From: Pyrinomonadaceae bacterium
GTDB taxonomy: Bacteria; Acidobacteriota; Blastocatellia; Pyrinomonadales; Pyrinomonadaceae
Direction of reading: 5' to 3'
Assembly: GCA_036386415.1 (NCBI GenBank)
Contig: DASVVT010000088.1
Location: 1-64,000 of the forward strand
Length of the DNA: 64,000 bases
Below, piece by piece: positions 5,761 through 46,804 of this stretch (positions within the stretch are counted from its first letter, which is position 1; the number at the start of each line of letters is the position of its first letter). A program made the position numbers and the translations under genes. Under the pieces are notes generated by a model that saw nothing but the letters and a program-made list of their open reading frames with translations, was not told where the DNA came from and did no database searches.

Positions 5761-6333
5761 ATGAGACGAAAACTTTTCACCCGACGCCTTAGCCTGTTGA
5801 TCATCGCCGCTCTGCTCATCGTCCCCGCAAATTTCACGGCCAGTCCAACGCTACCTCCACTGCAACCGAACATCGGAATAAACGGCTTCTTCGCGGCGGA
5901 CAAGGCGCAGCGCGGGCGCACGGTTCAAGCGGCGGTGGTGATGGATATTCCAGAAGGCTTTCACGTCAACTCCAATAAGCCGCTCGGCAAATATGCCATC
6001 GCCACGGTTCTTAAGATCGAAGCGCCGGGCGGCATCAAAGTCGGGCCGGTCATCTATCCGCGCTCGATGTTGCGCAGCTTCAGTTTTTCGCAGGAGAGAT
6101 TGGCGGTTTACGAAGGACGCGCCGTGATGCGCTTCAACGTCACCATCCCGGCAGGCTTTGAGCCGGGCGTGATCGAGCTGCGCGCCAGCGTCAGATACCA
6201 GAGCTGCTCAAATGATGTCTGCTTTCAACCCGCTACACGCAACGTCACCATGCCGATAGCCGTCGTCGGCGCTAATGAATCTGTGAAGCGCATCAACGGT
6301 CAGTTCTTCGGAGGAGGAAGACGGAGGAGGTAG
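5761..6333 (+). CDS. Secreted protein resembling the N-terminal (alpha) domain of thiol:disulfide interchange protein DsbD
   Basis: Signal peptide present. Ig-like region with a YQSCSNDVCFQP Cys pair typical of DsbD-N/DsbC-type PF11412 domains. The stop codon TAG (6331-6333) is the first triplet of repeat element A. Confidence 0.45.
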   Translation: MRRKLFTRRLSLLIIAALLIVPANFTASPTLPPLQPNIGINGFFAADKAQRGRTVQAAVVMDIPEGFHVNSNKPLGKYAIATVLKIEAPGGIKVGPVIYPRSMLRSFSFSQERLAVYEGRAVMRFNVTIPAGFEPGVIELRASVRYQSCSNDVCFQPATRNVTMPIAVVGANESVKRINGQFFGGGRRRR

Positions 6334-6478
6334 ACAGTAGACAGTAGTCAGTAGTCAGTAGTCAGTAGATAAACCGAGTGCCTGTTACGCTCTCAATTAT
6401 GATTCATAATGAGCCGTATCAACCGAGTCAACCGATTTTCTGTTCTACTGGCTACTGACTACTGTCTACTGTCTACTG
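6331..6478. repeat. AGTAGTC-heptamer hairpin element, copy A (loop module in reverse orientation)
   Basis: Left arm TAGACAGTAGACAGTAGTCAGTAGTCAGTAGTCAGTAG (6331-6368) pairs with right arm CTACTGGCTACTGACTACTGTCTACTGTCTACTG (6445-6478). The 76-nt loop contains, on the minus strand, AGAAAATCGGTTGACTCGGTTGATACGGCTCAT. Confidence 0.9.
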
Positions 6479-7390
6479 CTTTCCAATCACTGCAAGCAAT
6501 CGACCCGTGCGACCGTAGACGCTCTTTTCGCGACGGTAGGAGAAGAAGAGGTCTGTCCGGCACATCGTGCAGAGCGGTGCGATATGGATGGCCTCTGCCG
6601 GAACGCCCCCTGCAATCAACTGATTGCGGTTCGCTCTTTGAAGATCAATGCGCGCGTGCCCGCCCTGTGTCGGCGTGAACAACTCGTCTGCGTCGTTGAA
6701 GCGCTCGTGGAAAGCTTGGACGACTTCGCCGCCGACTTCATAGCAGCACGCGCCCGCCGCCGGGCCGATAGCGGCGCACACATCCTGCGCGCTTGTGCCA
6801 TACTTCTCGCTCATACGTTCGAGCGTGCGTGTGATGATGGAAGAGAGCGTGCCGCGCCACCCGGCATGGACGGCTGCCACCGCGCCCTTCTTCATGTCGC
6901 CCAGTAGCACAGGTACGCAATCGGCTGTTTTGATGCCGAGCAGAATGTTCGGCCTATCGGTCGTCAGAGCATCGCAATGCTCCGTGTCGTTGCGTGCGTC
7001 GTCGCGGTCTTGAACGACGCGCACGTCTGCGCTGTGCACCTGCCAGCAGGCCGTGAGCATCCAGTCGCCTTCCAGGAGCTTGAGAAAGCGACGACGGTTC
7101 TCGTATATATTCTCGGCAGCGTCCTCGTTAAAGCCTGCGAGGTTGAGCGCATCCTGCGGCATGGGGCTACAGCCGCCCAGTCGCGTCGAAAAAGCGTTGG
7201 TAAAACCATGACGCTCAAGCGGCTCGCACACCAGCGCGCGCACGCTTGATTGCTCGCGCCAGAAGAATCCGGCGCGCTTTAACTCTGCATCATCCGTGAT
7301 CATTTCAATCGGTATAGACATGATCGAAGTCCGTCGCGTACGCGAAGTCATCTCGCGCACGCCGCGTTTCGTCGAGCGCGTTTTCACCAT
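6473..7390 (-). CDS. pgeF: Peptidoglycan editing factor PgeF / YfiH (DUF152 laccase-domain purine nucleoside phosphorylase)
   Basis: HAGWRG and CxxC...H motifs of the YfiH family. The true start is probably an internal Met near 7320 (MSIPIEM), because the listed start overlaps acpS. The stop codon lies in the right arm of repeat A. Confidence 0.8.
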   Translation of the reverse strand: MVKTRSTKRGVREMTSRTRRTSIMSIPIEMITDDAELKRAGFFWREQSSVRALVCEPLERHGFTNAFSTRLGGCSPMPQDALNLAGFNEDAAENIYENRRRFLKLLEGDWMLTACWQVHSADVRVVQDRDDARNDTEHCDALTTDRPNILLGIKTADCVPVLLGDMKKGAVAAVHAGWRGTLSSIITRTLERMSEKYGTSAQDVCAAIGPAAGACCYEVGGEVVQAFHERFNDADELFTPTQGGHARIDLQRANRNQLIAGGVPAEAIHIAPLCTMCRTDLFFSYRREKSVYGRTGRLLAVIGKQ

Positions 7391-11230: not shown

Positions 11231-11246
11231 AAAGCTACGACTAGCG
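11231..11246 (+). repeat. 16-bp direct repeat AAAGCTACGACTAGCG, left boundary of the low-GC island
   Basis: Exact copy at 14389-14404. A neighbouring TTGCACAA/TTGTGCAA motif is also duplicated at both ends. Confidence 0.8.
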
Positions 11247-11414: not shown

Positions 11415-11603
11415 GTGGCCGAAACCAAACTCCCGATTGGAATGGTCAAGCTAGACGGATGCAGATGCAGGTGTGGGCACGAATGGATACCGCGCGTCAA
11501 AGGGGAAAGACCTGCTAATTGCCCTCAGTGTAAAGCTTCAAAGTGGGACAAGCCGAAAGCTTTCAGCCGAAACAAATCAGCTAACAAGAGGGAAGGCGCG
11601 TAA
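11415..11603 (+). CDS. Small zinc-ribbon protein (CxCxC...CPQC) with lysine-rich tail; candidate controller/partner of the downstream RM enzyme
   Basis: 62 aa, motif GCRCRCGHEW...CPQCKASKW. Its TAA stop overlaps the ATG of the next gene (TAATGG at 11601-11605), so the two are translationally coupled. Low-GC codon usage. Confidence 0.5.
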   Translation: MAETKLPIGMVKLDGCRCRCGHEWIPRVKGERPANCPQCKASKWDKPKAFSRNKSANKREGA

Positions 11604-14296
11604 TGGCTCGGTCAACTAAGAAGAGGACGGGAAAGGGTCGCCCTGTAAATAAATACTGCTCGCTGTCCGCGTTGCATAACGAGAGTGACGTAGAGCAGTT
11701 TTTTGTTATGCCACTTCTGACCGATCTAGGTTATGGGCCAGAGTATTTAGAAACTAAGGCGACAGTAACTCAGGTAAAGATAGGAAAGGGGAAGGGAAAG
11801 AAATCCTATATACCAGATTATCTTGCGTATATCAGCACGGAAAAAGAAAAACCTGTACTTATTATAGATGCCAAACATCCCAATCATTCAGCCGAAGAGG
11901 GAGTCAACGATGCACAGCTTTATGCTTCAGTAATTCGCAGGAAGATGGCCGAACCTAAGCCAGAGCAGTATTGTATTGGCGTAAACGGGCATAAATTGAT
12001 ACTGAAGCATTATGATAGTGATGCGTCGATTTACGAATTATCATTCCAAGATTTCAAGGATGACAATCTACTTTTTACCGCTTTCAAACAAGCAATCAAC
12101 CGTGAATCTCTAACTCGTAAACAGAAATTAAAAGAAAAGGAACCGAAAAGCGATTTCGAGTTCCGAACGGTCTCACCGGTTGAACTGCCCGCCATTTTTG
12201 AAGCGTGTCACCGAGCGATCTGGAAAACAGAAAAGCGTAGCCCCGCATCGGCCTTTTATGAATTTGCAAAAGTCATGTTCGTAAAGATTGATGAAGACAA
12301 ACGGTTACATGAACATCTTATCTCAACCAGCCACGATTTTTCATCCGGCAAAGTTCCCAAAGGGGCTGTGCGATTCTCTGTCCATTGGATTGAAGAGATG
12401 GAAGAAGAAACGGATACAGATGATCCAATTAACACTATTCTGTTTGCGCGACTGGCTAAAAATTTAGAAGAACAAATTGCAAACAAAGAGAAGAAACGTA
12501 TTTTCGAGCCAGGTGAGCTAATCAACCTCGCCCCATCTACTATCAAAGATGCAGTAAGATTTTTAGAACACTTAGACCTGTATGCCGTAGATGAAGACCT
12601 TAACGGACGACTCTTCGAGACGTTTTTAACTGCAACTATGCGAGGTGAAGATTTGGGCCAATTCTTCACTCCGCGCTCTGTCGTAAAGTTCATGGTGAAG
12701 TTGGCTAACCTTCAAGCCGCACCGCTAAAAGCGATGGATATGGTCTTAGATGGTTGCTGCGGTACGGGCGGCTTTTTGATTGAGGCGATGGCTGATATGA
12801 GTCACAGCGTGTCAAGCAATCGGGCAATCACAACGAAAGAACAAGAGACACTTCACCGACAATTAAGAACCGAGAATTTATGGGGCATTGATGCTGGTAA
12901 AGACCCTTTGATGGCTCGTATTGCCCGCCTAAACATGCTCCTACACAAAGATGGCGGGAGTCGCATTTACTATGCAGACGCTTTAGACAAACAGTTACGG
13001 ATAGAGTCAGGGTTGCCACTTCAAACACGCCAAGAGATTGACGAACTCCGGTCGAACATAGTAACCGGCGATACACGGTTTTCCTGTGTCCTGAGCAACC
13101 CGCCATTCTCGATGACTTATGAAAGGAAGAAACCAAACGAGAAAGCAATATTAGATGATTACGAATTATCGGTTGATGAAAAGGGAAAGCCAAGAACGTC
13201 ACTACGTTCTTCCGTAATGTTCTTGGAAAGATATTGGGACTTACTAACGGACGATGGCCGCCTCATTACCATTATGGACGAAAGCGTCCTCAATACGCTC
13301 ACGTCCAAACCATTCAGGGAATACCTGCTAGAAAAGTTTATCATCAAGGGTGTTATCGCGCTTCCCAAAAACACTTTTGTCAAGGCGCAGACCGCAGTTA
13401 AGACTTCCGTACTCTTTCTGCGAAAGAAGACCGATCCCGACGAACGCCAACCGGATATATTCATGGCGATTTGCCGGAATGTCGGGCACAGTGACTCTGG
13501 AAAGGAAAGGCCGCACCTCAACGAACTTCCTAATATCCTAAAGGCATTTCGCGTGTTTCAGGAAAAGGGGTCTGTAAAATCTTCAGATCAAGTATTCACC
13601 GTTCCTGACTTGCTGCCGAACAACCCAACTCTGCGTATTGACGCGCATTACTTTAATCCAAAGTATTTCTCTACGATGAAAGCCCTAGATAAAATGGCCT
13701 CAGATAGAGGATGGAAAATTGATACTCTCCAAGACCTGCTAAGGGAAAGCAAGACAGCACTTGCTGGTGGAGCAACCCCGCGAGGCGCATTGTATCCAGA
13801 TGACGGCCCAAAATTCATTCGTGTCCAGAACGTAAAGCCAAACAGATTAGATTGGGACTCAGACGATGCTTGTATTGACACGCGAACACATACGGTAACT
13901 CTAAAGAGGTCTCAGTTAAAAGAAGGTGATGTTGTTCTTACCATTACCGGCAGTTATGGGATTGCCGCAGTTGTTCCGGCAGGATTCGGAGAGGCAAACA
14001 TCAATCAGCATTCCGTTAAGATCGAAGTCGGAGACAAGATCATACCGGAGTACCTTAGCGTCTTTCTAAATTCCAATTTATGCAGACCTCAGTTTGAGAG
14101 GGCAGTAACAGGGTCAAGCAGGCTGGCTTTAGATTACACTTCAATCCGCAATCTACGCATTCTCTATCCAGAGGACAAAGACGAACAACGTAGAATTGCG
14201 AACACCATAATGAAGCAGCTAGAGGCAGTTTCAAATCTGAGGCGTGATGCCACCGCTTTAGATAAAGCGATGGGCGAAGTTCTAACTAACCTTTAG
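11603..14296 (+). CDS. Single-chain restriction-modification enzyme: N-terminal HsdR_N-type PD-(D/E)xK nuclease-like domain, gamma-class N6-adenine DNA methyltransferase (HsdM-like), C-terminal HsdS-like target-recognition domain
   Basis: N-terminus ESDVEQFFVMPLLTDLGYG...IPDY...LIIDAK (PD...D-x-K). MTase motif I region DLGQFFTPRSVV...VLDGCCGTGGFL, motif IV NPPFS. C-terminal TRD resembles an HsdS half (…VVLTITGSYGIAAV…SSRLALDYTSIRNLRILYP). ~42-48% GC against ~63% in flanking genes. Confidence 0.8.
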   Translation: MARSTKKRTGKGRPVNKYCSLSALHNESDVEQFFVMPLLTDLGYGPEYLETKATVTQVKIGKGKGKKSYIPDYLAYISTEKEKPVLIIDAKHPNHSAEEGVNDAQLYASVIRRKMAEPKPEQYCIGVNGHKLILKHYDSDASIYELSFQDFKDDNLLFTAFKQAINRESLTRKQKLKEKEPKSDFEFRTVSPVELPAIFEACHRAIWKTEKRSPASAFYEFAKVMFVKIDEDKRLHEHLISTSHDFSSGKVPKGAVRFSVHWIEEMEEETDTDDPINTILFARLAKNLEEQIANKEKKRIFEPGELINLAPSTIKDAVRFLEHLDLYAVDEDLNGRLFETFLTATMRGEDLGQFFTPRSVVKFMVKLANLQAAPLKAMDMVLDGCCGTGGFLIEAMADMSHSVSSNRAITTKEQETLHRQLRTENLWGIDAGKDPLMARIARLNMLLHKDGGSRIYYADALDKQLRIESGLPLQTRQEIDELRSNIVTGDTRFSCVLSNPPFSMTYERKKPNEKAILDDYELSVDEKGKPRTSLRSSVMFLERYWDLLTDDGRLITIMDESVLNTLTSKPFREYLLEKFIIKGVIALPKNTFVKAQTAVKTSVLFLRKKTDPDERQPDIFMAICRNVGHSDSGKERPHLNELPNILKAFRVFQEKGSVKSSDQVFTVPDLLPNNPTLRIDAHYFNPKYFSTMKALDKMASDRGWKIDTLQDLLRESKTALAGGATPRGALYPDDGPKFIRVQNVKPNRLDWDSDDACIDTRTHTVTLKRSQLKEGDVVLTITGSYGIAAVVPAGFGEANINQHSVKIEVGDKIIPEYLSVFLNSNLCRPQFERAVTGSSRLALDYTSIRNLRILYPEDKDEQRRIANTIMKQLEAVSNLRRDATALDKAMGEVLTNL

Positions 14297-15300: not shown

Positions 15301-15392
15301 AGATGTTAGATGTCAGATGCCAGATGTTAGATGTCGGCTCGCGGTCATAGACTCACATCTAACATCTGGCATCTGACATCTGCTTTTTACAC
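15301..15392. terminator. Hairpin built from AGATGTY heptamers (5 units per arm) followed by a T5 run; intergenic terminator-like element
   Basis: AGATGTTAGATGTCAGATGCCAGATGTTAGATGTC -loop- (C)ACATCTAACATCTGGCATCTGACATCTG CTTTTT. Lies between the SurA-like and patatin genes. Confidence 0.7.
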
Positions 15393-16103
15393 CGGATTCA
15401 GGATGATGATCTCGGCGTTTTCCCGCGCGTTGTCGAGGAAGGCATCCGTTTCGGATTCGATCTTGCTTTCGGTCAAGGTGCGCTCAAGCTGTTCGCGCAC
15501 TTCATCAAGCTTGGGCACGATCTGTCCGGGTGATTGTTTTTGCAGCCGTGGGATGTACACGTCGCGGTAGTAATCGGAGACCTCCTGCGGCGTGACGACG
15601 GTGAAGGAGCGGAAACGGAAATCCAGGTACTTATCTATCGCCACGCGCTGGCGTATGATCTCGCGCAACTGATCCGCGCTCAATCCGACGCTACCCATGC
15701 GCTGGTAAAACTCTTCGCGCGAGGGAAATCGATTGATAAGGTCTGCCAGGGCATCCTCGACCTCTTTATCGGTCGGAGCAATCGGCGGCAGCTTTTCCGC
15801 CTCCTGCACGATGAGACGCTGGTTGATGATTAATTGGAGCGCGCGGTTAAGCTCTTCCGAATTGGGGCGGGCGACGGGCGTGCCCGGCTCAAGAGCCAGT
15901 TGCCATAAAAGGTCTGAATAGGTGATGAGGGTGGTACGCGCGCCGTTGCTGACGGTCGCCACCATCTTGTCAACCACATCCTGAGCTTGCGCCTGCGACG
16001 AAAGCGCAAAGCAAAAGGTCAAAGTAAAAAGGCAAAAGTTTAAGACCAAAAGACAGAAGCCATATCGCAAGCGGTCTGTTTCTCTTTTTCTTAACTTTTG
16101 CAT
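15387..16103 (-). CDS. Periplasmic chaperone with SurA N-terminal domain only (no parvulin domain)
   Basis: Signal peptide (…CFALSSQAQAQ). SurA_N-like helical domain (LITYSDLLWQLA…INQRLIVQEAEKL…). Immediately downstream of the omp85 gene. Confidence 0.6.
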   Translation of the reverse strand: MQKLRKRETDRLRYGFCLLVLNFCLFTLTFCFALSSQAQAQDVVDKMVATVSNGARTTLITYSDLLWQLALEPGTPVARPNSEELNRALQLIINQRLIVQEAEKLPPIAPTDKEVEDALADLINRFPSREEFYQRMGSVGLSADQLREIIRQRVAIDKYLDFRFRSFTVVTPQEVSDYYRDVYIPRLQKQSPGQIVPKLDEVREQLERTLTESKIESETDAFLDNARENAEIIILNPV

Positions 16104-19994: not shown

Positions 19995-22900
19995 TCAAAA
20001 TCTCTTTCTGAAACGAATCTCGAAACTGAAATTATCGTTACGTGAGCTGAAGCCATTAACAGAGCCTTGCTCATATTGCGCGACGAACGACAGACGGTTT
20101 GAGACGCGATATTCGAGCGCCAGCACCTGATTCTGATCCGAAGTCAGGTTGGTCGAATAGGTGATCGACAGGTCTTTATTGATCTGCCGCCCGACCGTCA
20201 GGCGCGCCGTCGGGCTCGCCCCGCCGCGTCCCGCGATTAAAGGATCGATCTCGAAGCGGTTCAAGCCGAAAAGCTTGTCTGTGGCGCGCCGCACCGGAGC
20301 GTTAATCAGAGTATCTGTAAGCAGGCTGGTCGCCGTTCCCAGTCCGGTCTGCGCGAGCGTGGAAGTGCCCGTATCGCCCCCTTCCAGATTACCCGTCAGG
20401 ATGAGGGAGACGACATCTGTCTGCGGCAGCGCCGGATCGGAGCGGACGGTCGTCGTGAGCTGCGATAGTGGGCCGGTCAATCCGACGAGCACCTGATAGC
20501 CTTTGATCTCCGACTCCGCTTGAATATTGAGGATCGGATCAGCGTCGCGAGCAGGCGGGAGGTCTATGAAGCCGCGCGTCACTTCGTAAGCGTCGTTGCG
20601 GAAGTTGAGCGTGCCGCGCGTCAGGGAAATGCGTCCCGAAATAATGGGGTCTTCGACGGGGCCGACGGCGCGCACCGAAAGTGAGCCGACGATGTCCGCC
20701 AGATTGTTGCGCACGACGAGCGCATCGCGACCCTCGACCCGCACGTCCAACTGGGTTGTGGCGGCAAAGGCGGAATCGCCGCCCGTGCCTTCCGTCAACG
20801 AAGCTTCCCGGCGACGATTGATAATATCGGCCAGCTCTATGTCCTCTGTGTATTCGGCGCGACGCAGATTGACGACGCCGGTGATGAACTGTCCGCGCGT
20901 CGCGCCGTTGATCTCAAGGTCTGCGTCGGCAGTCGTTCTGAAGCCTTGAGGGTACGGGACGGTCACGTCGTCGCCGTGGACGCTGAAGCGATAGCTCGTA
21001 GGCGTAAATCCGGCGAGCAGCGCGCCGCCCGAAACCACGACGCGCCCGCCGCCGAGGTTGCCCGTCAAGGTGTCTATCTGCGCCTGATTGGAGTTGAAGC
21101 GAACGCGGCCATTGACGTTTGAGACGGTCAATCTCTCGTCGCCGATGAGGGTCGCAATGGACGCGCCCGCAACGTTGGCCGTACCGAAGAGACGCGGCTG
21201 CTCGTACGTGCCCGTCATACGCACGCTGGCTTCGGCAATTCCTGACAGGAAGATGTTGGGCGAGAGGCCGTTCAGAACTCTCAGGTTCAATTTGCCGTCG
21301 ATGGTCAGACTCTGGCGGCCACCGGGGCCGAGCGCCGCCGTGCCGCCGAAGAGAATGTTCGTGCCGGGGCCTGTGAACTGCGTCTTCTCAAAGAAGACCT
21401 CCTCGCTTGAGAACTGCACCTGAAGCGGCGAGACGGCCTGAAGCGGGATGTCTTCGACCTGTATGGTCAGGTCTGTGAAGTTGGCCGTGCCACGCAGTCC
21501 CGCGAGGCTGAACACGTCTTCATCTTTCTCGTTCGGCGTGATGAGATTTCCGCTCGCCTTGAGCGTGCCAGTCGCGTGGCCGATCACCTTGACGTTTGAT
21601 TGCGGCAGGAGCAGCGCGAAGAGCGGCGTCAGGTCTGCGCCCGCAAGCGTCGTCTCGATGTTCGTCGCCAGACGCTCGCTGCCGAGATCGACGCGCGCCG
21701 CGATGGTCTGCGGCTGTCCCAGCAAATCTGTCGTCAGGCGCAGATCGAACTGTTTATTCTCCGTGCGCCCCACAAGCGTGAGACGCCCCGTCGTGCGACC
21801 GTTCACGGTCACGTCTCTGCCTTCGCCGTCGATGTTGATCTGGTAGGTCGAGAAATCCGTAAAGACTCCAGTGGCGTGCGCCACGAGGTCGGCTGTGCCG
21901 GTCAGTTGCGGCAGCCCCGAAGTATTCTTGGCAAAGCTCTCCAGGCGGTCGAGTTTAATCCCCTCGCCCCGCGCCTGTATGTCGAACCCCTGGGTCGTCG
22001 TATTGTATGTCCCGCTCGCCGTGATCCGCCCGGCACTAAAGCGCGCGTCAACATTTTCAAGATTGATGGCCGAGCCGTTGAAGGTCGCGCGCGCGATGAT
22101 GCTTTCAAACGGTTCGCCCGCGATGCGCCCCGGACTGAAACTGAGTTCTGCATTGCCGCTCATCGCACCCGGCAGCCCTGTCACGTTAATGCGCCCCGAA
22201 AGGTCTGACTGCACGTCGCCCAAACGATCAAGCGCGCCTTGATTCGCTTCTCCACCCATACGAGGTCTGAGGGCGGCAACGGCAGCGAGCAGGTTTCCGG
22301 CGTTGGCACGATCAAGCGTCAAGTCGAGCGCGATGTTGTTATCGCCGACGCGTGGAGCAAGCAGGCTGAACTGCGCTCCGCCGCCGTCGCGCTCCGTGAG
22401 TCGGCCATCGCTCAAGCGGATTTCGTCTGGAGTCACGCTCAGGTTGGCTGCGACCGAGCCGAGGTCACGATCCTGAACAAGCAGGGAATCAAGCGCGGCG
22501 TGGCCGTCGATGGTCGGGTTCGTCAAGTCTCCACGGACATTTCCGTTGAAGGCGAAGTTTCCGCCGAGACGGATTCCGCTCTCGCGTAGCTGCTGATCGA
22601 GGTCGGGGAAGAGACCGGAAGCGAGCAGGACATTCTGTAGCTCTGTCGCGTCGCTCGATTTGACGTTGAGCTGAAGATCGGATTCGGAGCGGATGAAGGA
22701 GAAGCGTCCCGTGGCGCTCAGCTCTGAAGAGGCCGTGCGCAGGTTGGCGCGCTCGATGTTGAAGAGGCCGCGCGTCGCACTCAAGGTGACATCACCGTTG
22801 AGCGCTGTGCGCGAGTCGCTGGCCTCATTGCCCGCTACGTCGCCATTGAACTCCGCACGCACAGTTCCGCTCGCCGCCTTGATATTCGATCCCGGAAATG

Positions 22901-25118
22901 CCAGATCAATCGTGCCGGAGGTTTTGCCCGTCAGAGGCACAATACGCTGCGAGAAGGTGGCGAGCAGGTTGTCTATGTCCAGATTATTAAAGTCTGCCGT
23001 GACGTGCGACGCACCATTTCTAGCCGTGCTGATAGTGGCGTTGCCGCTGGCGTTGCCGTTGAGCACGTCGGCTGTGAAATTGTTGAGGCGTATCTGATCG
23101 TTGGTTGCGACCACATTGCTGCGCGCCGCGCCCAGGTTTATTTTGCCGAGCACGCCGCCGCCCAGGCTCAGGTCTGCGCTCGCGCGATAACGCCCCTGCG
23201 GCTCGATCACGAAGACCGGGCGCGCGAGCCGTACGTTTTCGACATGACCATCCTGGAGAGCCACCGTTCCGGCGTTGATGTCGCCCGATGACCCTTCGAC
23301 GCGCCCGTCGCGAATCGTCAGTCGAACGCCCGCTATATTGAGGCTGCCGATGCGTGCGCCGCCCTGTGCGTTGATGCCGCCAACGCGAACGTTATTTGCG
23401 ACGACAGCGGTTGCGCCATCTCGGTTGACGATCTCCACACCGCCCGCCGTGACGCCGTTTACGCGCACGCCCGAAGCATCGACAGTTCCCGCACGCACGC
23501 TCCCCAGGGAAGCGGTCGTGACATCGTTTTCCGAGCGCACGCGCACGTCCGATGCTTGCGCCCCGTTGATTGATGCGCCCGAAGTCTGAAGACGGTTGGC
23601 GCTGGCCGAAGAGGCAGAGGCCGTCAGCAGGTTATCGCGCGATTCGGCCACCACGTCTTTGAGGATCAACCCGGCAAGGGTTGTGCCCGCGCCGCGCGCT
23701 GCCGCCGCGCGCAGCTCTCCGACCCAGCGAAAGTCCGTGCCCGTGCCCATCAAGCCCCCTGCAAGTTGCAGCGTGTTCAATTGAAAATCGCCCGCCGCCA
23801 GCACCTCCGCAACGGCGCGACCGTTGATGTCGTAGCTCGCGCCGTCGCCCGTGCCCTTAGCCGTCAGGTTCAGATTCTGCAAGCGCACACCGTCCGCCGC
23901 CAGCGCGTCCGCTTTGACCTCGCCGTCAACCTGATAACGCGAGCCTTCGCCCGACACAGTGCCTTCCAGATTGCCGACGCCGCGCAAGGCCGTACCCGAT
24001 TGCAAGATGTCCGAAGCCTGTGTGAGGTCGATCATAGACGTGATACGCATCTGGTAACGCAGGTTGCGCCAGTCGTCCATAGTGCCCTGCAAGTGCGCCT
24101 CGGCCACGGGCGAGCGCAAAACAAGCTCTTGAATCTCTGCGCGCGTCTGGTTGACGCGCCCGTGCGCCTCCACTGAGATGTCGTTGACGGGGCGGCCATC
24201 GTAGACGAAGGTTGAATTGGAGAGCGCGAGGGTGACTGTGTTCATCCAGCTTTCGGCTGGCGCTTGTGGGTCATCCGGCTGAATTGTGGCGACGATATTG
24301 CGCGCTTCGCCGGAGAGACGGTGCTGCTCGTCGCCGTAGTGTATGAGCGCGTTGTTGATGATGACCTTCGCCGTCGAATAAGAGAAAAGGATGCGGCGGT
24401 TCGGGTCGGGCTCAGGCAGCTTGATGTTGCGAAAGTTTGAGTTGCCCTGCGCGTCAAACTTCACCCACAGCTCTGCCCCGTCAACCTGCAAAGATTCCAG
24501 GTTGACGTTGCGGCGCAGGTTGAGCGCGTAAAGGTCTGTGACGCGAACTGTCGCCAGCAGGCGATCAATCTTGCCAAGCTGCTCGCCCGTCTGAGAGTCG
24601 TAGAGCTCGATGCCCGTCATCTCGACGGTGCGCGGCCCGAACTTCGTGTGAAACTCCTTGATCTCAGCGCGGATGCCGTACTCCGCGAAGGTCGTCTTGA
24701 TCTGCCCCGCGATGTAGCGGTCGATGTAGCCGAGGCGGTACACGATGATCGCGACCAGCACCAGGGCGACCGCGCCGACGGCAACTGCAATGGTCGCGAT
24801 GAAGGCATTGCGCCGGGTGAGATAACGCCGCCGACGCCCCTGCGGCGTGACGGGCTCCGGGCGATCCGCATCGCGCTCGGCGACCCGTTCGGCCACGGGC
24901 GGCAAGGGCTCGTCCGTCTCCGAAGAAAGCGCCTCGGTGAGGGTTTCCTTTTCAGTCTCAGGCTTGCTTTGAGACGAAGCGTCGTCGCGATCATCAACAG
25001 GCATAATTATGGGGGCGAGCCTATCAGGCACACGCGGCTCGCGAGTAAATCGAATTAAGAATGGGAGAGCCTCAGCGACAGAAGCTCGACCGTACGCGTT
25101 GGGCGTACGGCCACCCAC
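19995..25118 (-). CDS. tamB: TamB-like translocation-and-assembly module protein (AsmA-like, DUF490 C-terminus), 1707 aa
   Basis: Single N-terminal TM. Long beta-rich repetitive body. C-terminal DUF490 signature (…GRQINKDLSITYSTNL…LALEYRVSNRLSFVAQYE…FSFEIRFRKRF). Confidence 0.85.
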   Translation of the reverse strand: MGGRTPNAYGRASVAEALPFLIRFTREPRVPDRLAPIIMPVDDRDDASSQSKPETEKETLTEALSSETDEPLPPVAERVAERDADRPEPVTPQGRRRRYLTRRNAFIATIAVAVGAVALVLVAIIVYRLGYIDRYIAGQIKTTFAEYGIRAEIKEFHTKFGPRTVEMTGIELYDSQTGEQLGKIDRLLATVRVTDLYALNLRRNVNLESLQVDGAELWVKFDAQGNSNFRNIKLPEPDPNRRILFSYSTAKVIINNALIHYGDEQHRLSGEARNIVATIQPDDPQAPAESWMNTVTLALSNSTFVYDGRPVNDISVEAHGRVNQTRAEIQELVLRSPVAEAHLQGTMDDWRNLRYQMRITSMIDLTQASDILQSGTALRGVGNLEGTVSGEGSRYQVDGEVKADALAADGVRLQNLNLTAKGTGDGASYDINGRAVAEVLAAGDFQLNTLQLAGGLMGTGTDFRWVGELRAAAARGAGTTLAGLILKDVVAESRDNLLTASASSASANRLQTSGASINGAQASDVRVRSENDVTTASLGSVRAGTVDASGVRVNGVTAGGVEIVNRDGATAVVANNVRVGGINAQGGARIGSLNIAGVRLTIRDGRVEGSSGDINAGTVALQDGHVENVRLARPVFVIEPQGRYRASADLSLGGGVLGKINLGAARSNVVATNDQIRLNNFTADVLNGNASGNATISTARNGASHVTADFNNLDIDNLLATFSQRIVPLTGKTSGTIDLAFPGSNIKAASGTVRAEFNGDVAGNEASDSRTALNGDVTLSATRGLFNIERANLRTASSELSATGRFSFIRSESDLQLNVKSSDATELQNVLLASGLFPDLDQQLRESGIRLGGNFAFNGNVRGDLTNPTIDGHAALDSLLVQDRDLGSVAANLSVTPDEIRLSDGRLTERDGGGAQFSLLAPRVGDNNIALDLTLDRANAGNLLAAVAALRPRMGGEANQGALDRLGDVQSDLSGRINVTGLPGAMSGNAELSFSPGRIAGEPFESIIARATFNGSAINLENVDARFSAGRITASGTYNTTTQGFDIQARGEGIKLDRLESFAKNTSGLPQLTGTADLVAHATGVFTDFSTYQINIDGEGRDVTVNGRTTGRLTLVGRTENKQFDLRLTTDLLGQPQTIAARVDLGSERLATNIETTLAGADLTPLFALLLPQSNVKVIGHATGTLKASGNLITPNEKDEDVFSLAGLRGTANFTDLTIQVEDIPLQAVSPLQVQFSSEEVFFEKTQFTGPGTNILFGGTAALGPGGRQSLTIDGKLNLRVLNGLSPNIFLSGIAEASVRMTGTYEQPRLFGTANVAGASIATLIGDERLTVSNVNGRVRFNSNQAQIDTLTGNLGGGRVVVSGGALLAGFTPTSYRFSVHGDDVTVPYPQGFRTTADADLEINGATRGQFITGVVNLRRAEYTEDIELADIINRRREASLTEGTGGDSAFAATTQLDVRVEGRDALVVRNNLADIVGSLSVRAVGPVEDPIISGRISLTRGTLNFRNDAYEVTRGFIDLPPARDADPILNIQAESEIKGYQVLVGLTGPLSQLTTTVRSDPALPQTDVVSLILTGNLEGGDTGTSTLAQTGLGTATSLLTDTLINAPVRRATDKLFGLNRFEIDPLIAGRGGASPTARLTVGRQINKDLSITYSTNLTSDQNQVLALEYRVSNRLSFVAQYEQGSVNGFSSRNDNFSFEIRFRKRF

Positions 25119-40162: not shown

Positions 40163-40612
40163 GTGTCTAGCGAAATGGCTGAACTGTTGCGCGCACTCGC
40201 CGCACGGCTGCACAGGTACATAGGTGATCGTCGTCGCGCCCCACGACACGGGGTGCGCCTGGCCGTCACTCTCTGGCTGCCTGACGGCCCGCTCAATTCA
40301 AACGGCGTGCGCCGACGCTCGCCCGTGCTTGAGGGCTTCACACGCGATGTGAGCGCAACCGGGCTGGCGCTCATCCTGCCCGCCATTCGCATCGGCGAAC
40401 ACTACCTGATCGGCGAAGGCCGCAACCTGCGCCTCCGGCTTGAACTTCCGACGGGGGCGATCCAGATGGATGTCACTCCCGTGCGCTACGAGCGTCTTGA
40501 AGAGGAGCAGGCGGAAAAGGGCTACCTCATCGGCGTCCTGATCGCGGAGATGAGCGACGAAGATCGCCAACGCTACAACGAAGGAATGAAAACAGTAGAC
40601 AGTAGCCAGTAG
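40163..40612 (+). CDS. PilZ-domain c-di-GMP-binding protein
   Basis: RRRAPRHGVRL (RxxxR) and DVSATGLAL (DxSxxG) PilZ motifs. The last 5 codons and the TAG stop lie in repeat C. Confidence 0.7.
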   Translation: MSSEMAELLRALAARLHRYIGDRRRAPRHGVRLAVTLWLPDGPLNSNGVRRRSPVLEGFTRDVSATGLALILPAIRIGEHYLIGEGRNLRLRLELPTGAIQMDVTPVRYERLEEEQAEKGYLIGVLIAEMSDEDRQRYNEGMKTVDSSQ

Positions 40613-40740
40613 TCAGTAGCCAGTAGAAAAGAAAATCGGTTGATGCGGTTGATACGGCTCATCTAACTTCATAGTAGGCAGCAAAGCTTGATGCCCTGCT
40701 TTCGTTTCTACTGGCTACTGACTACTGGCTACTGTCTACT
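40594..40740. repeat. AGTAGTC-heptamer hairpin element, copy C (perfect 33-bp stem)
   Basis: AGTAGACAGTAGCCAGTAGTCAGTAGCCAGTAG / exact reverse complement at 40707-40740. Loop AAAAGAAAATCGGTTGATGCGGTTGATACGGCTCATCT…. Confidence 0.95.
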
Positions 40741-41389
40741 CCTCCTCAAACCCGAGCCAGCCGAAGACTTCCGGCACGTGAAAGTTGGGCTGCGCGGTGC
40801 GCGTCGGTTGCCAGGCGAGGTAGCCGCGCTCCGGGCCTGCGCCGACGCAGCGAAAGAGGTTTACGCGCCAGCGCTCCCCAGCCTGCGGCGCATGCGGAAA
40901 AGCCCTCCAGGGCACGCGCATGGCAATCGTCACACGGGCTTCAAGGATACGCGCGGCGGCTGACATTCCTGAACGGTATTGCCAGTCTGTCTCGCGCGCT
41001 GCTCGTTTCTGCCGGATCGCCAGGTCCAGCCATTCGCCCGTCGGCGCGGCCTCGAACTCGAAATAACGCTCAGGCTCACGCGCCTCCACGGCGACGAAGA
41101 TTTCGCACACGTCGCGCTCCCAGAGGCCGACTGTTTTCTCTTCTCTCTGCGGCGCGGCGCTCATCACGAGAGGTTCATCCTGACGACAGTCGAAGCGCAC
41201 ACACAGCGCCGTCTCCGACCACAGGATGCGCACCTTTGCCTGACGTCCGGCAGGGGCTTCCTCGCCAGACCAGTATCGCTTGATGTGAACAGGAGACGCC
41301 CCCTCCCATTCGTCGTGATCCAGATCGGAGGCCATCACATCCGCGCTCGCACGATGCGCGACGATCAAATCGGAAGTCTCAGTTACCAT
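40736..41389 (-). CDS. Hypothetical protein (possibly a CBM9-like carbohydrate-binding fold) bracketed by repeat copies C and D
   Basis: 217-aa ORF with normal codon usage and several conserved Trp. The stop lies in the right arm of repeat C and the start is 5 nt from repeat D. Confidence 0.45.
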   Translation of the reverse strand: MVTETSDLIVAHRASADVMASDLDHDEWEGASPVHIKRYWSGEEAPAGRQAKVRILWSETALCVRFDCRQDEPLVMSAAPQREEKTVGLWERDVCEIFVAVEAREPERYFEFEAAPTGEWLDLAIRQKRAARETDWQYRSGMSAAARILEARVTIAMRVPWRAFPHAPQAGERWRVNLFRCVGAGPERGYLAWQPTRTAQPNFHVPEVFGWLGFEEE

Positions 41390-41393: not shown

Positions 41394-41535
41394 AGTAGAC
41401 AGTAGTCGGTAGACAGCAGACAGTAGAAAAGAAAATCTGTTGACGCGGTTGATGCTGCTCATCTCAATCATCGTAGGCAACGTAGTAGATACTCTGTTTT
41501 ATCTACTGCCTACTGACTACTGACTACTGTCTACT
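41394..41535. repeat. AGTAGTC-heptamer hairpin element, copy D
   Basis: Arms AGTAGACAGTAGTCGGTAGACAGCAGACAGTAG / CTACTGCCTACTGACTACTGACTACTGTCTACT (imperfect). Loop AAAAGAAAATCTGTTGACGCGGTTGATGCTGCTCATCT…. Confidence 0.9.
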
Positions 41536-42086
41536 TCTTCCATTGTTCCAGCGCATCCATGCAGGTCTTGAGCAGGCGTGCCGGATCGTCATTATGAAAG
41601 ACGCTCGCACCAGTTTTCTTGGGCAACGTTTGAAGAAGACGGGCGACTTCATCGGCGACACCTCCCGTCCCCGTCAGGCAGCCGATGATGCGACCCTCGT
41701 CGTGGGCGATGGTGAATTCGTTGAGTGCGCCCATCGAGCCTCCGATGACGATCACTATATCGCATGACCGCACGAGCACGACGTTGCGTCCCTTGAGCCC
41801 GAAGCCCGTGTAGATGATGAGGTCGCAGGCGTCCACCGGAAGCCCGTAAGCGCCAATGTGCTCGTGCTCGTTCGCGGCAGGCGAGACGCCGACGTGGAGC
41901 CCGCCCGCTTCATGCGCGGCGCGCCCCGCGATGTCAGGCAATCCCGTCGTCGCACCCGTCAGCAGCACCAGACCGCGCGCGGCGCACTGTCGTCCGAGCG
42001 CTTCCGATTTCTCACGCACAGCAACAGCTACGCCCCCTGCTGGCAGCGTATCGTCTGCCGAACCCATGATGCCGACCTTAATCTTC
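41531..42086 (-). CDS. TIGR00725/LOG-like Rossmann-fold protein (lysine-decarboxylase-like family)
   Basis: MKIKVGIMGSA… N-terminus, GGSMGALNEF (compare the LOG PGGxGTxxE motif). The ORF-track start at 42145 is probably a spurious extension. The stop lies in the right arm of repeat D. Confidence 0.6.
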
Positions 42087-42145
42087 ATGAAAAGCAGGAG
42101 ACAGAATACAGAATACAGGAGACAGAATAAAACCGTAGGGGCCAT

Positions 42146-44287: not shown

Positions 44288-46804
44288 GTGCGAGTGAAAT
44301 TCATAGAGATGTTTGATTACAATCGCGCGGCGCGGGCTTACTGGTCGGCGATGGTTATCGCCGGTGCGCTCGTCGGCGCATGGGGTGTGTCTCAAGCTCT
44401 CTCTTTCACATCCGTGCAGTGGGCGCAGTTTCTTGCGCTCTTGAGCCTCGTCGTCGTCACCGCTTCACACCCGATTCGCATCCCGAACACGAAAGCGAGC
44501 GTCACGGCAGGCGACACGTTCACTTTTCTGAGCGTCCTGCTGTTGGGCGTGCCCTCAGGCATCCTGCTCGGCATCGTCGATTCCTTCGTCAGCTCGCACC
44601 GGACGACGCGGCGTGCGACGAGCTGGCTGGCCGCGCCCGCGATGATGGCGCTGACGGTGCTCGTTGCGGGCAACGCTTTTTACCTGACCCTCGCCGCGAC
44701 GGCGCACAGCACGGACTCTCCGCTTCGCACCTCGGACGTGCATCTGGATGACCTGATCGTGCCGCTGGCCGTGATGACGCTCCTACAGTATTTCCTGAAC
44801 GGTATGACTGTCGCCACCCTGTGCGCTTTGAAGGGGCGGCGCTCGATCTGGAAGTTCTGGCGCGACGGCTACCTCTGGACATCCTGGACATTTTTTGGGG
44901 CGGCGATTGCAGCCGCCTTGATCTACTCAGCCATTTCGAGATTTGGTTTCGTCTACGTGCTGCTGAGTGCGCCCATCATCGCTGCGACCTACGCGACCTA
45001 TCGCATCTACTTCGAGCGGATGAACGAGAAGACGCGCGAGGCGAAAGAGTTGAGCCGCCTGCACCTGGCGACGGTCGAAGCGCTGGCGACCGCCATTGAC
45101 GCCAAGGATCAGACGACCCATTGCCATGTCCGTCGCGTGCAAATCTACGCCGCCGGGATGGGCAGAGTCTTTGGCCTCTCCGACAGCGAGATCGAGGCGC
45201 TCAAGGCGGGCGCGCTCCTGCACGACATCGGCAAGCTGGCCGTGCCCGATCACATTCTGAACAAGCCAGGCCGCCTCTCCGCTGCCGAGTTCGAGAAGAT
45301 GAAGGTGCACACCACGGTCGGCGCCGAGATTCTCAGGCGCGTCAACTTCCCTTATCCGGTCGTGCCCGTCGTGCGCCATCATCACGAGCAATGGGACGGG
45401 CAGGGCTATCCGGACGGACTGCGTGGCGAAGAGATTCCGATCACGGCGCGCATCCTCTCGGTCGTCGATTGCTTCGACTCCGTGCGCGAAGATCGCCCTT
45501 ACCGTCGCGGCATGACGACGGAGGAGGCGAGCGCGCTGCTGCTCAGAGGCGCTGGAAAACATTTCGACCCCAAGGTCGTCGAGCAGTTTTTCAAGCACCT
45601 GCCGCGTTTTGAATCTGAGATTGCGGCGCTCGGCCTAGACCGGCACGGCCTGACGGATGAGGAGTGTGAGCCGCGCGCGCTGACCGAGGCTGAAGTCGCG
45701 CAAGGGAGAGACGAAGCATCGACGGTCGCTTATCTAGACCAGATCAAGAATGCGCATCGTGAAGTCTACGCGCTCTACGAGATTGCGCGCACCTTCGGCT
45801 CATCCTTAGACATACAGGATACGGTCACGATTCTCGTCAACAAGGTCAGGCACATCGTCCCCTTCGATACCTGCGTCGTTTACCTCTATGACGAATTGAA
45901 AGGCTATGCGACCGCCGCGCACGTGGCCGGAAAGAACGCCGAGGCCTTGCGGGATCGCTGCATCGCGCCCGGCGAAGGCGTCACTGGTTTCGCGCTCGCC
46001 AATCGCCGCGCCATTAACCGGATCGACCCCAGCCTTGACTTCACGGGCGTTGAGCTTGCGCCCGGCAACCCTTATCGCTCGATGGCGGCGCTCCCCCTCG
46101 TCAAAGATGAACGACTGCTCGGCACGCTCTCCATCTATTCGATGGAGATGAATGATTACACGGACGACCACATGCGTCTCCTGGACACTGTGGCGCGGCT
46201 CGCTTCGGATGCGCTCGCCAACGCCGTCCAGCACGCGCAGGCCGAGTCACACGCCCTCACAGACCCGCTCACGGGACTTCCCAACGCTCGCTGCATGTAC
46301 ATGCGCTTCGAGCAGGAGGCGTCACGCGCGCGCCGCTCGGGTCGCCCCTTCCAGGTCATCATGCTCGATCTGGACGACTTCAAGCAGGTCAACGATACCT
46401 TCGGCCACAAGGTCGGCGATCAGATGCTGCGCGAAGTGGCGCGCCTGCTCCACTCGCAGCTACGCGAGTACGACTTCCTCGCGCGTTATGCGGGCGACGA
46501 GTTCGTCGCCATCGTGCAGGAAGTCATCGGCGAGCAGGTCGAAGAACTGCGCGAGCGTATCGAAGAGACCATCTCGAAGTTCACGCTTCGCGTCCGCGCA
46601 GAGCACCACGCGCGCGTCGGCATCAGCGTCGGAGCCGCGACCTACGGCACGGACGGCGAAACCCTCGACCAGCTCCTGATCGCCGCCGACGAAGCCATGT
46701 ACAGCGCCAAGTCCGTGCACAAACAGCGACGCCTAGAAGCGGAGACAAAGGTCGAATCCCCCGTCGACATCTCGGATAATCTCGCCTCTACAGCGATAAA
46801 TTAA
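44288..46804 (+). CDS. Membrane-anchored c-di-GMP signalling protein: multi-TM sensor domain, HD-GYP phosphodiesterase, GAF domain, GGDEF domain (AGDEF variant)
   Basis: HD-GYP motifs LLHDIGK, HHEQWDGQGYPDGL. GAF region (LYEIARTFGSSLD…). GGDEF domain with RYAGDEFVAIV. Confidence 0.85.
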   Translation: MRVKFIEMFDYNRAARAYWSAMVIAGALVGAWGVSQALSFTSVQWAQFLALLSLVVVTASHPIRIPNTKASVTAGDTFTFLSVLLLGVPSGILLGIVDSFVSSHRTTRRATSWLAAPAMMALTVLVAGNAFYLTLAATAHSTDSPLRTSDVHLDDLIVPLAVMTLLQYFLNGMTVATLCALKGRRSIWKFWRDGYLWTSWTFFGAAIAAALIYSAISRFGFVYVLLSAPIIAATYATYRIYFERMNEKTREAKELSRLHLATVEALATAIDAKDQTTHCHVRRVQIYAAGMGRVFGLSDSEIEALKAGALLHDIGKLAVPDHILNKPGRLSAAEFEKMKVHTTVGAEILRRVNFPYPVVPVVRHHHEQWDGQGYPDGLRGEEIPITARILSVVDCFDSVREDRPYRRGMTTEEASALLLRGAGKHFDPKVVEQFFKHLPRFESEIAALGLDRHGLTDEECEPRALTEAEVAQGRDEASTVAYLDQIKNAHREVYALYEIARTFGSSLDIQDTVTILVNKVRHIVPFDTCVVYLYDELKGYATAAHVAGKNAEALRDRCIAPGEGVTGFALANRRAINRIDPSLDFTGVELAPGNPYRSMAALPLVKDERLLGTLSIYSMEMNDYTDDHMRLLDTVARLASDALANAVQHAQAESHALTDPLTGLPNARCMYMRFEQEASRARRSGRPFQVIMLDLDDFKQVNDTFGHKVGDQMLREVARLLHSQLREYDFLARYAGDEFVAIVQEVIGEQVEELRERIEETISKFTLRVRAEHHARVGISVGAATYGTDGETLDQLLIAADEAMYSAKSVHKQRRLEAETKVESPVDISDNLASTAIN

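Follow-up and report, generated by a model that had tools for sequence, protein, structure and literature searches.

The 64,000-nt stretch of a Pyrinomonadaceae (Acidobacteriota) genome analyzed here (assembly GCA_036386415.1, contig DASVVT010000088.1, positions 1 to 64,000; hereafter the window) carries six loci, copies A to F, that are best read as members of a non-coding palindromic intergenic repeat family. The bacterium is a soil acidobacterium, and an exact protein match assigns the window to JGI metagenome contig 3300034009 Ga0334944_000014 (239,899 bp). Each copy consists of a run of tandem AGTAGNC heptamers, a core of 60–81 nt, and a run of GNCTACT heptamers, with four to six units per arm. 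Each element is tied to the stop codon of the gene or genes upstream of it, and the spacers between divergent genes are almost never occupied. In related genomes, the same sites are occupied across species-level divergence, while the arms gain, lose, and change units, and the cores flip, swap, and recombine. The explanation that we favor, with a probability of roughly 0.55, is that these non-coding hairpins at gene 3' ends and between cistrons work like repetitive extragenic palindromic (REP) sequences and bacterial interspersed mosaic elements (BIMEs), and retain their palindromic structure through slippage, template switching, and gene conversion. Heptamer-array hairpins form a class that extends across the lineage, and the AGTAGNC family is locally its most abundant one.

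Structure and gene-end position of the six copies

With the three-unit search pattern AGTAGNCAGTAGNCAGTAG and up to two mismatches allowed, 37 matches were obtained in the window, all of them within the six loci, and none in 100 shuffles. The arms are 33–40 nt long and the complete element measures about 140 bp. Period-7 arrays are present on both arms in all six copies, whose outer ends read A-GTAG ... CTAC-T and whose cores open A-rich and close T-rich. RNA folding of the six copies gave energies from −59 to −86 kcal/mol, with z scores between −6.8 and −12.1 that no shuffle equalled; in these folds, a single arm has no self-complementarity, and the arms pair only with each other. For copy C, the inverted-repeat scan reports 41 nt paired at 98%. 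An initial annotation of the window had proposed a dispersed family of six long hairpins with multi-unit heptamer arms, loops of about 60–80 nt, and a perfect 33-bp stem in copy C. All six loci were read and matched, the measured arms and loops agree with this description, folding is supported by the z scores, and the two arms of copy C are perfect complements. The suggestion that the genome harbors hundreds of copies is plausible at the density of about one element per 10 kb observed in the window and in a neighboring strain.

The TAG stop codons of six flanking genes lie inside the arms (Table 1), and the TAA stop (56504–56506) of the ABC permease gene 54677..56506 on the plus strand is found 3 nt before the full-unit array of copy E. 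Copies A (DsbD_N and Cu-oxidase_4 genes) and C (PilZ and CBM9) have convergent neighbors, while co-directional pairs surround copies B (TamB and Omp85), D (SLOG/LDcluster4 and CBM9), E (ABC permease and the next open reading frame, ORF), and F (HAD hydrolase and cyclophilin). The neighbors of all six copies are ordinary housekeeping genes. That every copy is intergenic and located at a gene 3' end, as initially annotated, is therefore borne out; the further claim that the arms of A, C, D, and F supply the stop codons of convergent neighbors is right about the TAG codons, but only A and C are convergent.

The position rule was examined in 62 non-redundant AGTAGNC hairpins from many genomes, using a self-trained codon-usage gene finder whose validation relied on the JGI gene calls for the window. 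Co-directional genes surround 38 of these hairpins, convergent genes 16, and divergent genes a single one; of the 55 hairpins that could be classified, 54 border one or more gene 3' ends. Among the approximately 75 gene-end flanks, the stop codon falls within the arm, at its first, second, or third TAG, in about 39 cases, and no more than 12 nt away in about 22 more. The distances on the gene-start sides are spread broadly. The order of the arrays is always AGTAGNC...GNCTACT, and never the reverse, among the matches listed.

Turnover at orthologous sites, core classes, and distribution

Syntenic loci from seven relatives were fetched via homologues of the CBM9, cyclophilin, and patatin proteins. 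The closest comparison is offered by strain S1, which shares about 91–95% DNA identity with the window and carries elements at C, D, E, and F, that is, at all four comparable sites, although with unit numbers that differ from those in the window. Its copy of D is decayed, its copy of C (locus L118) contains a compensatory AGGAG:CTCCT change, and its cores at E and F have the opposite orientation relative to the genes. In another relative (L199), the core at A is flipped, and B contains a pure core of the type called class 2 below. Core flips between close relatives are thus seen at three sites, E, F, and A.

Genome G2 is more distant, with 76–90% protein identity to the window. Its site D is empty (L122) and its site E has a different heptamer unit, whereas A, B, C, and F have (NNTCAGC)n arms that enclose class-1 cores and retain the outermost AGTAG/CTACT units. 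Site B has identical boundaries in four genomes, with AGTAGNC arms in two of them and (NNTCAGC)n arms in the other two. A census of array types with Tandem Repeats Finder gave six AGTAGNC and no NNTCAGC arrays in the window (64 kb), 5–6 and none in S1 (37 kb), none and about seven in G2 (62 kb), and both types in L201 (21 kb). Site F is empty in L197; this genome and that of L122 are too diverged for the junctions of their empty sites to be defined. The arms of the CAGATGY hairpin at 15300, one of several with other units described below, are kept in L199 and L201, where its loops are unrelated. Overall, the sites are retained over about 15–25% protein divergence, and the hairpin potential is kept despite unit changes on both arms. 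The conservation of sites together with the changes in arms and cores implies that the elements are long-lived residents of gene-end spacers that undergo concerted turnover. The most unexpected feature is the joint change of unit type on the two arms at sites whose boundaries and cores persist, and the second surprise is the frequency of core inversions between close relatives. At one further site, the window has a spacer of about 290 nt with several GAGAGTCTC-type palindromes (53281–53563), and in S1 a class-1 element with AGTAGNC arms begins precisely at the stop codon (TAA in the window, TAG in S1).

The same arms enclose at least three classes of core. Class 1 is the module that the initial annotation regarded as conserved in all six loops; it is well shared among A, C, and D and more diverged in F, but B has a hybrid core, and E, which had been taken for a diverged copy of the module, belongs to class 2, which is widespread in other Pyrinomonadaceae genomes. 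The direct repeat noted within the module is present, and is more accurately a tandem 9-mer, CGGTTGATG CGGTTGATA CGGCTCATC, followed in copy C by a small GGCAGC..GATGCC hairpin and then by the T-rich end. Class 2 consists of AAAAG, a small hairpin, GGTGTCAGCGTCAGCG, and GCGCGGAGCG, with 13 copies in at least nine metagenome-assembled genomes (MAGs) when E and half of B are counted; the class-2 core of copy E is also found in at least nine other Pyrinomonadaceae MAGs. The third class, with about 10 copies in other MAGs, is a GC hairpin, GCGGCGCG..N17-21..CGCGCCGC, that is set amid A-rich and T-rich tracts and includes compensatory variants. Copy B has about 20 nt of the class-1 module on one side and, on the other, the GCGCGGAGCGCC end that it has in common with E. 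Paralogous cores are only about 80% identical, compared to up to 93% for orthologs. A minimal form of class 1, AAAGAAAAGCGGTTGATGCTTTCTTT, makes up the entire loop of hairpins in G2. A metagenome scan with the class-1 module returned only two matches, both unrelated tandem 9-mers, and no further copies, so that class 1 is restricted to this lineage. The two matches, at about 400–480 in L124 and 2700–2750 in L123, are located on unrelated high-GC metagenome contigs and consist of tandem 9-mers, (CGGTTGATC)n, ending in CGGCTCAT; their 9-mer is that of the class-1 core, and its opposite strand reads as an ORF start, MSRINRINR....

The six-copy family is real, but no fewer than six additional hairpins in the window, built on other 7-nt units, had been overlooked; these were identified by Tandem Repeats Finder combined with the inverted-repeat scan (Table 1). 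Period-7 arrays dominate the short repeats of the window, and about 13 of its roughly 30 non-overlapping spacers, but none of the four divergent ones, hold a heptamer-armed hairpin. The (GGATTGC)n and (TGCGGAT)n hairpins have a core in common, in opposite orientations. The core of the (AGGGATG)n hairpin is about 100 nt long in the window and about 25 nt in S1 (L195, reverse complement of 2375–2480), which indicates that a hairpin, once in place, can acquire or lose a core. In the output of gene callers, the ABC ATPase and permease ORFs overlap across this hairpin. The TGCGGAT unit has no stop codon in any frame, and ORF 57118..59781 therefore reads through the hairpin at its 3' end. This ORF belongs to the PIG-L family; its last 45 or so codons are repeat-encoded, it overlaps the next gene by ATGA, and the hairpin is also found in S1.

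When one genome per species was scanned for runs of four AGTAGNC units, at least 116 loci were obtained. Among the matches listed, paired arrays 50–90 nt apart are concentrated in Pyrinomonadaceae and Blastocatellia MAGs, with a few in Vicinamibacterales, Thermoanaerobaculia, Chloroflexota, Thermoguttaceae, and one alphaproteobacterium, and single arrays are found in Microcoleus, Tychonema, Mesorhizobium, and others. AGTAGNC arrays are also carried by 70 IMG/VR contigs. One of these (L161) has hairpins at 6607–6687 and 9147–9229, 3' of the stop codons of two genes, one tail-like and one for a head-tail adaptor, and another (L136) has arrays at 765–799 and 2866–2893 that flank a major head protein gene (PHROGs assignments). 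The phage-contig hairpins that directly follow stop codons have short cores ending in a T-run. Such placement in phage late operons is typical of intercistronic stabilizers and attenuators.

Table 1. Arms, cores, and arm-borne stop codons of copies A to F, and further heptamer-armed hairpins in the window (a dot denotes a feature listed without strand).
Feature	Position	Strand	Description
Copy A 5' arm	6329-6368	.	GGTAGAC AGTAGAC AGTAGTC (x3) AGTAG
Copy A 5' arm, TAG	6331-6333	+	stop of DsbD_N-domain gene 5761..6333
Copy A core, class 1, 76 nt	6369-6444	-	module AACAGAAAATCGGTTGACTCGGTTGATACGGCTCAT on minus strand
Copy A 3' arm	6445-6477	.	CTACT GGCTACT GACTACT GTCTACT GTCTACT
Copy A 3' arm, TAG	6473-6475	-	stop of Cu-oxidase_4 gene 6473..7390
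Copy B 5' arm	19859-19891	.	5 nt from ATG (19853-19851) of Omp85/POTRA gene (-)
Copy B core, hybrid, 65 nt	19892-19956	+	start class-1-like AAAAGAACATCCGTTGATGC; end class-2 TCAGCGACAGC..GCGCGGAGCGC
Copy B 3' arm	19957-19989	.	TGA stop 19995-19997 of TamB gene 19995..25118 (-) 5 nt beyond
Copy C 5' arm	40594-40626	.	AGTAGAC AGTAGCC AGTAGTC AGTAGCC AGTAG
Copy C 5' arm, third TAG	40610-40612	+	stop of PilZ gene 40163..40612
Copy C core, class 1, 81 nt	40627-40707	+	tandem 9-mer CGGTTGATG CGGTTGATA CGGCTCATC
Copy C 3' arm	40708-40740	.	perfect complement of copy C 5' arm
Copy C 3' arm, TAG	40736-40738	-	stop of CBM9 gene 40736..41389
Copy D 5' arm	41394-41426	.	two degenerate units, GGTAGAC and AGCAGAC; 4 nt from ATG (41389) of CBM9 gene (-)
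Copy D core, class 1, 76 nt	41427-41502	+	about 82% identity to site-A core of genome G2 (L200)
Copy D 3' arm	41503-41535	.	
Copy D 3' arm, TAG	41531-41533	-	stop of SLOG/LDcluster4 gene 41531..42145
Copy E 5' arm	56507-56542	.	partial GTC unit, four units, and AGTAG; full units from 56510
Copy E core, class 2, 60 nt	56543-56602	+	AAAAG, small GCGTTCGC/GCGAGCGC hairpin, GGCGTCAG, GCGCGGAGCGC
Copy E 3' arm	56603-56635	.	next ORF start at 56639/56642
Copy F 5' arm	63213-63245	.	18 nt from ATG (63194) of cyclophilin gene (-); AAGGAG Shine-Dalgarno between
Copy F core, diverged class 1, 73 nt	63246-63318	-	read on minus strand
Copy F 3' arm	63319-63351	.	outer degenerate unit GTCTCCT
Copy F 3' arm, TAG	63340-63342	-	stop of HAD hydrolase gene 63340..63987
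(CAGATGY)n/(RCATCTG)n hairpin, 20-nt loop	15300-15382	.	between SurA-like and patatin genes
(GGATTGC)n hairpin	35095-35206	.	3' of OPT transporter gene
(GAATGMG)n hairpin	39888-39988	.	35-nt arms, 97% complementary
(AGGGATG)n/(CATCCCT)n hairpin	54640-54851	.	junction of ABC ATPase and permease genes
(TGCGGAT)n hairpin	59648-59764	.	within 3' end of ORF 57118..59781
(GAGTCAT)n hairpin	62483-62715	.	between convergent genes; loop holds insertion of about 160 bp absent in S1

Several other elements were observed in the window. An element of about 160 bp at 61446–61603 is composed of 9-mers of the CCTTTGCGT and CCCTCTGCG types and is cleanly absent in S1 (L195); with TCTAGA on both sides, compared to TCTGGA at the empty site, it looks like a true insertion of a miniature inverted-repeat transposable element (MITE) with target duplication. 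Related 9-mer repeats are found at 32379, 42141–42245 (a hairpin with 9-mer arms), 43618, and 50558. The insertion of about 160 bp relative to S1 in the (GAGTCAT)n loop, at 62509–62684, has inverted repeats GGTAGAGTCCTG... / ...CAGGAGACTACT and an apparent 8-bp duplication, AGCTAAAC; like the heptamer arms, it opens with GGTAG and closes with CTACT. A low-GC island (45–50%, compared to about 60%) extends over 10700–14400 and includes an 897-aa N6-methylase/Eco57I-like type IIG restriction-modification gene (11603..14296) that is absent at the syntenic position in L199, L200, and L201 and preceded by an AT-rich palindromic 13-mer array (11267–11384). The HD-GYP/GGDEF gene 44288..46804 is directly followed by a perfect palindrome (46797–46857; arms of 29 nt, loop of 3 nt) that has no heptamer periodicity and is the sole long hairpin in the window with terminator-like features (minus strand). 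Finally, an inverted repeat at 16001–16137, AAAGGCAAAAG... / ...CTTTTGCCTTT, has its second arm where the SurA-like gene 15387..16103 encodes its signal peptide; the repeat, which is conserved in part in L199, may be a structure linking the 5' untranslated region (UTR) and the coding sequence.

Proposed role and competing explanations

In the model that we favor, the element is transcribed as part of a 3' UTR or an intercistronic spacer and folds into a long hairpin, which, by analogy with REP and BIME sequences, could block 3' exonucleases, terminate transcription in part, or act as an insulator, in a lineage where canonical terminators are few. Such roles have been demonstrated for REP/BIME sequences in enterobacterial operons. 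In favor of the model, gene ends in the window show no other enrichment of canonical terminators, whose matches fall mostly inside genes. Transcripts may also end inside those cores that have their own GC hairpin and T-tract. The purine-rich 5' arm would present TAG in all three frames from either side, and an element reaching the end of an ORF would therefore truncate the protein cleanly, without extension. Binding of a HutP-like protein to UAG-N4-UAG repeats is a conceivable further lead; other unit types have no UAG. As for the origin of the structure, the 7-nt periodicity could arise by replication slippage, and the complementarity of the arms as well as the flipping of the cores by template switching within the palindrome or recombination between the inverted arms. 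Cores and unit types may then spread by gene conversion via the common arms, or through a trans-acting enzyme, for which a REP-associated tyrosine transposase (RAYT) would be one candidate.

Several observations weigh against this model. There is no clear U-tract 3' of the 3' arm. A canonical intrinsic terminator, defined by a GC-rich stem, a loop of 3–8 nt, and a U-tract, is formed by none of the six copies and by 8 of the 62 loops (2.3 expected in shuffles), which qualifies the initial idea of a bidirectional terminator or insulator. The N position of the heptamer is paired in only 5 of 10 cases, three pairs have double changes, and covariation in the class-2 core is weak, which gives weak support for selection on RNA pairing. 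Template switching alone could preserve the complementarity of arms that have no function. Units of the NNTCAGC type, GGATTGC, and CAGATGY do not provide stop codons in all frames, and a stop-codon pad is therefore not the general reason for the existence of the class. In addition, copies B and D are located only 4–5 nt from start codons that have no Shine-Dalgarno sequence, where they could hinder expression.

The most obvious competing explanation is that the six copies form a classical MITE family, in which the heptamer arrays are the terminal inverted repeats recognized by a transposase encoded elsewhere and the cores represent subfamilies. We consider this unlikely, even though the initial annotation included a mobile MITE-like element among its suggestions, terminal inverted repeats and multiple copies are present, cores are common to unrelated loci, several unrelated cores are found within the same arms, sites D and F are empty in L122 and L197, respectively, and phage contigs also have copies. 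MITE activity does exist in this genome, as shown by other small elements of the window that, when compared to S1, are clean insertions between duplicated flanks; however, no direct repeat is common to the flanks of any of the six copies, as would be expected from target-site duplication, and the 64-kb window encodes no transposase, integrase, or reverse transcriptase. An autonomous partner was not found in the window or the fetched loci either: inverted arrays spaced 0.3–5 kb apart flank ordinary genes, such as those for arginyl-tRNA synthetase and phage major head proteins, rather than transposases or insertion sequences. Moreover, the number of units varies, the arm type switches at sites with constant boundaries, and the identity of paralogous cores (about 80%, compared to 93% for orthologs) argues against a recent burst. 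A more specific form of mobility, to which we assign a still lower probability, is that of a REP or REPIN element (a REP doublet forming a hairpin) moved by a Y1 transposase of the RAYT or TIRYT type, where every unit bears the GTAG tag, the single-stranded DNA hairpin is the substrate, and the arm types co-evolve with the enzyme. The arm type is in fact lineage-specific at orthologous sites, and enterobacterial REP sequences (palindromic units) are likewise species-specific. The termini A-GTAG...CTAC-T are found in both the AGTAGNC and NNTCAGC types; in addition, TAG stop codons are donated and the elements lie between unidirectional or convergent genes, as described for GTAG REPs (PMC3733652), and Acidobacteria encode a distinct group of Y1 transposases associated with terminal inverted repeats (PMC3733652). 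On the other hand, the arms are not self-complementary units of 20–40 bp, their GTAG is base-paired rather than a free tag, and the AGGGATG and GGATTGC families of the window have no GTAG at all. RAYTs were searched for with motif patterns and with phmmer, using E. coli RayT and IS200 TnpA queries, in 1.77 million ORF residues of the fetched loci, and none was found in the Pyrinomonadaceae loci. The sole RAYT-like Y1 transposase ORF (L058, 1915–2478; E = 8.5e-8 with the E. coli RayT query) comes from a Thermoguttaceae MAG and is flanked by GC-rich repeats instead of heptamers, with GNCTACT arrays 3–5 kb away in the same locus; one further match was spurious.

At the opposite extreme, the hairpins could be a neutral by-product, in which heptamer simple sequence repeats expand by slippage in dispensable spacers, become inverted by quasi-palindrome correction, and are tolerated at gene 3' ends without having a function. 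In many bacteria, the intergenic DNA is enriched in heptamer repeats of this kind, for which an origin by slippage has been proposed (PMC4692102). The unstable unit number between orthologs, the coexistence of many different units, the frequently unpaired N position, and the empty sites in some relatives can all be accommodated in this way. Nevertheless, pure neutrality seems to us quite improbable, since the sites and the hairpin potential are kept across about 15–25% protein divergence, even after unit changes on both arms, the AGTAGNC..GNCTACT orientation is strict, divergent spacers are nearly devoid of the elements, and slippage alone cannot make cores of 40–65 nt that are common to loci and genomes. 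Least credible by far is the idea that the loop module gives rise to a small peptide, MSRINR(I/V)NRFSFLL..., or to a small RNA (sRNA) acting in trans. On the reverse strand, the class-1 module does start with ATGAGCCGTATCAACCG and remains open for 26–89 codons in A, C, and D, the copies differ in part by synonymous substitutions, and the two metagenome matches to the module also begin ORFs. However, the frame is broken by indels in F, the module is absent in B and E, the ATG is changed to ATA in L200 and missing in L201, and there is no Shine-Dalgarno sequence, and we therefore reject both a small protein gene in the class-1 core and the protein-coding module initially envisaged; the metagenome matches are tandem 9-mers in unrelated high-GC contexts. 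With respect to an sRNA, the orientation relative to the neighboring genes flips between close relatives, no sigma-70-like promoter was found in 40000–42000, and direct reading revealed no consistent −10 box among the copies. The covariance models of Rfam 15 gave no match at the gathering score in the window and two related loci, and relaxed scans yielded only chance matches (E > 0.2); an sRNA of a known family is not supported, with no match at the gathering score or at E ≤ 1. Integron attC sites, another candidate, were rejected on direct reading: there is no GTTRRRY core, the spacing of 0.8–20 kb is not cassette-like, and the arms are symmetric.

A more speculative possibility, which we regard as doubtful, is that of a self-renewing system in which a lineage-specific trans-acting enzyme or template rewrites the arm units throughout the genome, and the cores are invertible cassettes that switch directional signals. 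A RAYT-like nuclease, or a templated repeat-adding activity that operates at pre-existing gene-end sites, could be responsible for the rewriting, and core flips might switch, for example, the one-sided hairpin and T-tract of class 2, for the flanking genes. Such a system would explain why AGTAGNC and NNTCAGC arms are found at orthologous sites with the same boundaries and related cores.

Significance and relation to known repeats

To our knowledge, intergenic heptamer repeats have been known in bacteria for decades, from the short tandemly repeated repetitive (STRR) sequences to those of Xanthomonas and Beggiatoa, and no mechanism or function is generally accepted. A literature search for heptamer or hairpin repeats in Acidobacteria or Pyrinomonadaceae returned nothing specific. 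The present lineage offers an unusually dense and readable case, where roughly one in three gene-end spacers holds such a hairpin, different units coexist, cores are common to loci and genomes, and turnover can be traced at orthologous sites. If the hairpins are indeed working 3'-end structures, in a phylum that seemingly has no canonical terminators, they would matter for the annotation of operons and gene ends in Acidobacteria, and if the concerted change of the arms has an enzymatic cause, it would represent a new way of maintaining repeats. On the practical side, gene callers extend or truncate ORFs in the arms, and assemblies may break or be mis-oriented at flip-prone cores.

The initial annotation found no match to REP, BIME, enterobacterial repetitive intergenic consensus (ERIC), or MITE descriptions, but this novelty was overstated, as inverted heptamer arrays in Xanthomonas (PMC4692102) and TAG-donating GTAG REPs (PMC3733652) precede it. 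The closest precedents are the inverted GGGAATC arrays of Xanthomonas, the cyanobacterial STRRs, and the GTAG-tagged REPs. Rehm et al. 2015 (PMC4692102) describe about 185 GGGAATC arrays per Xanthomonas genome, with 70–75 convergent pairs that could form stem-loops; the arrays are mostly found between co-oriented ORFs, at most 50 bp from a stop codon or extending across it, and the authors cite a hypothesis of slippage. The Xanthomonas GGGAATC and Nostoc GGGGAYT arrays (PMC4692102) resemble those described here in having tandem 7-nt units, mostly about four per array, and hundreds of arrays per genome, and the Xanthomonas arrays are likewise intergenic, rare between divergent ORFs, and variable in length between related species. 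Their unit, however, is G-rich and has been studied for its ability to form G-quadruplexes, whereas the unit here is AGTAGNC, which includes a stop codon, and the host belongs to another phylum. Conserved cores, core flipping, and a switch of units at orthologous sites are present here, and are not reported for Xanthomonas (PMC4692102).

AGTAGNC is identical to no described unit among STRR1-3, GGGAATC, and TAACTGA. TAACTGA direct repeats were reported from Beggiatoaceae, Cyanobacteria, and Bacteroidetes by MacGregor 2015 (PMC4679880), and, like the STRRs (cited in PMC4692102), they are short intergenic tandem heptamers with a patchy distribution across phyla and no known mobilizing mechanism. 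On direct reading, the reverse complement of TAACTGA, TCAGTTA, has a TCAG core in common with both the AGTAGTC arrays (TCAGTAG) and NNTCAGC. TAACTGA and STRR arrays are nevertheless mostly direct, and those of Beggiatoa lie just upstream of start codons, where they are proposed to be sites for translational regulators, whereas the arrays described here are inverted pairs on stop codons. According to Di Nocera et al. 2013 (PMC3733652), GTAG REPs are located between unidirectional or convergent ORFs and often provide a TAG stop codon. GTAG REPs, BIMEs, and REPINs (PMC3733652) thus share with the present elements GTAG/CTAC termini, head-to-head dimers that form long hairpins, and a lineage-specific sequence at conserved sites, and the roles in mRNA stabilization and termination proposed for GTAG REPs are those proposed here. 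The REP unit, in contrast, is an imperfect palindrome of 20–40 bp with an unpaired GTAG, while here the heptamer arms are not palindromic and the GTAG is inside the stem.

MITEs such as Correia, RUP, and ERIC elements, and those shared between prokaryotes and viruses (PMC11602168), are similar to our elements in size (100–200 bp), terminal inverted repeats, intergenic location, and copy number, as well as in having subfamilies with different cores and copies in phage genomes. Unlike MITEs, the heptamer hairpins have no target-site duplication or cognate insertion sequence, their terminal repeats are periodic with a variable number of units, and they have resided at orthologous sites for a long time. 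For the flipping of the cores, a parallel may exist outside bacteria: Kelchner and Wendel reportedly described, in 1996, minute inversions of hairpin loops in non-coding chloroplast DNA, where a short loop flanked by inverted repeats flips again and again among close relatives without a dedicated recombinase. Those inversions concern single hairpins in an organelle and the present ones a dispersed repeat family, but loop flipping is common to both.

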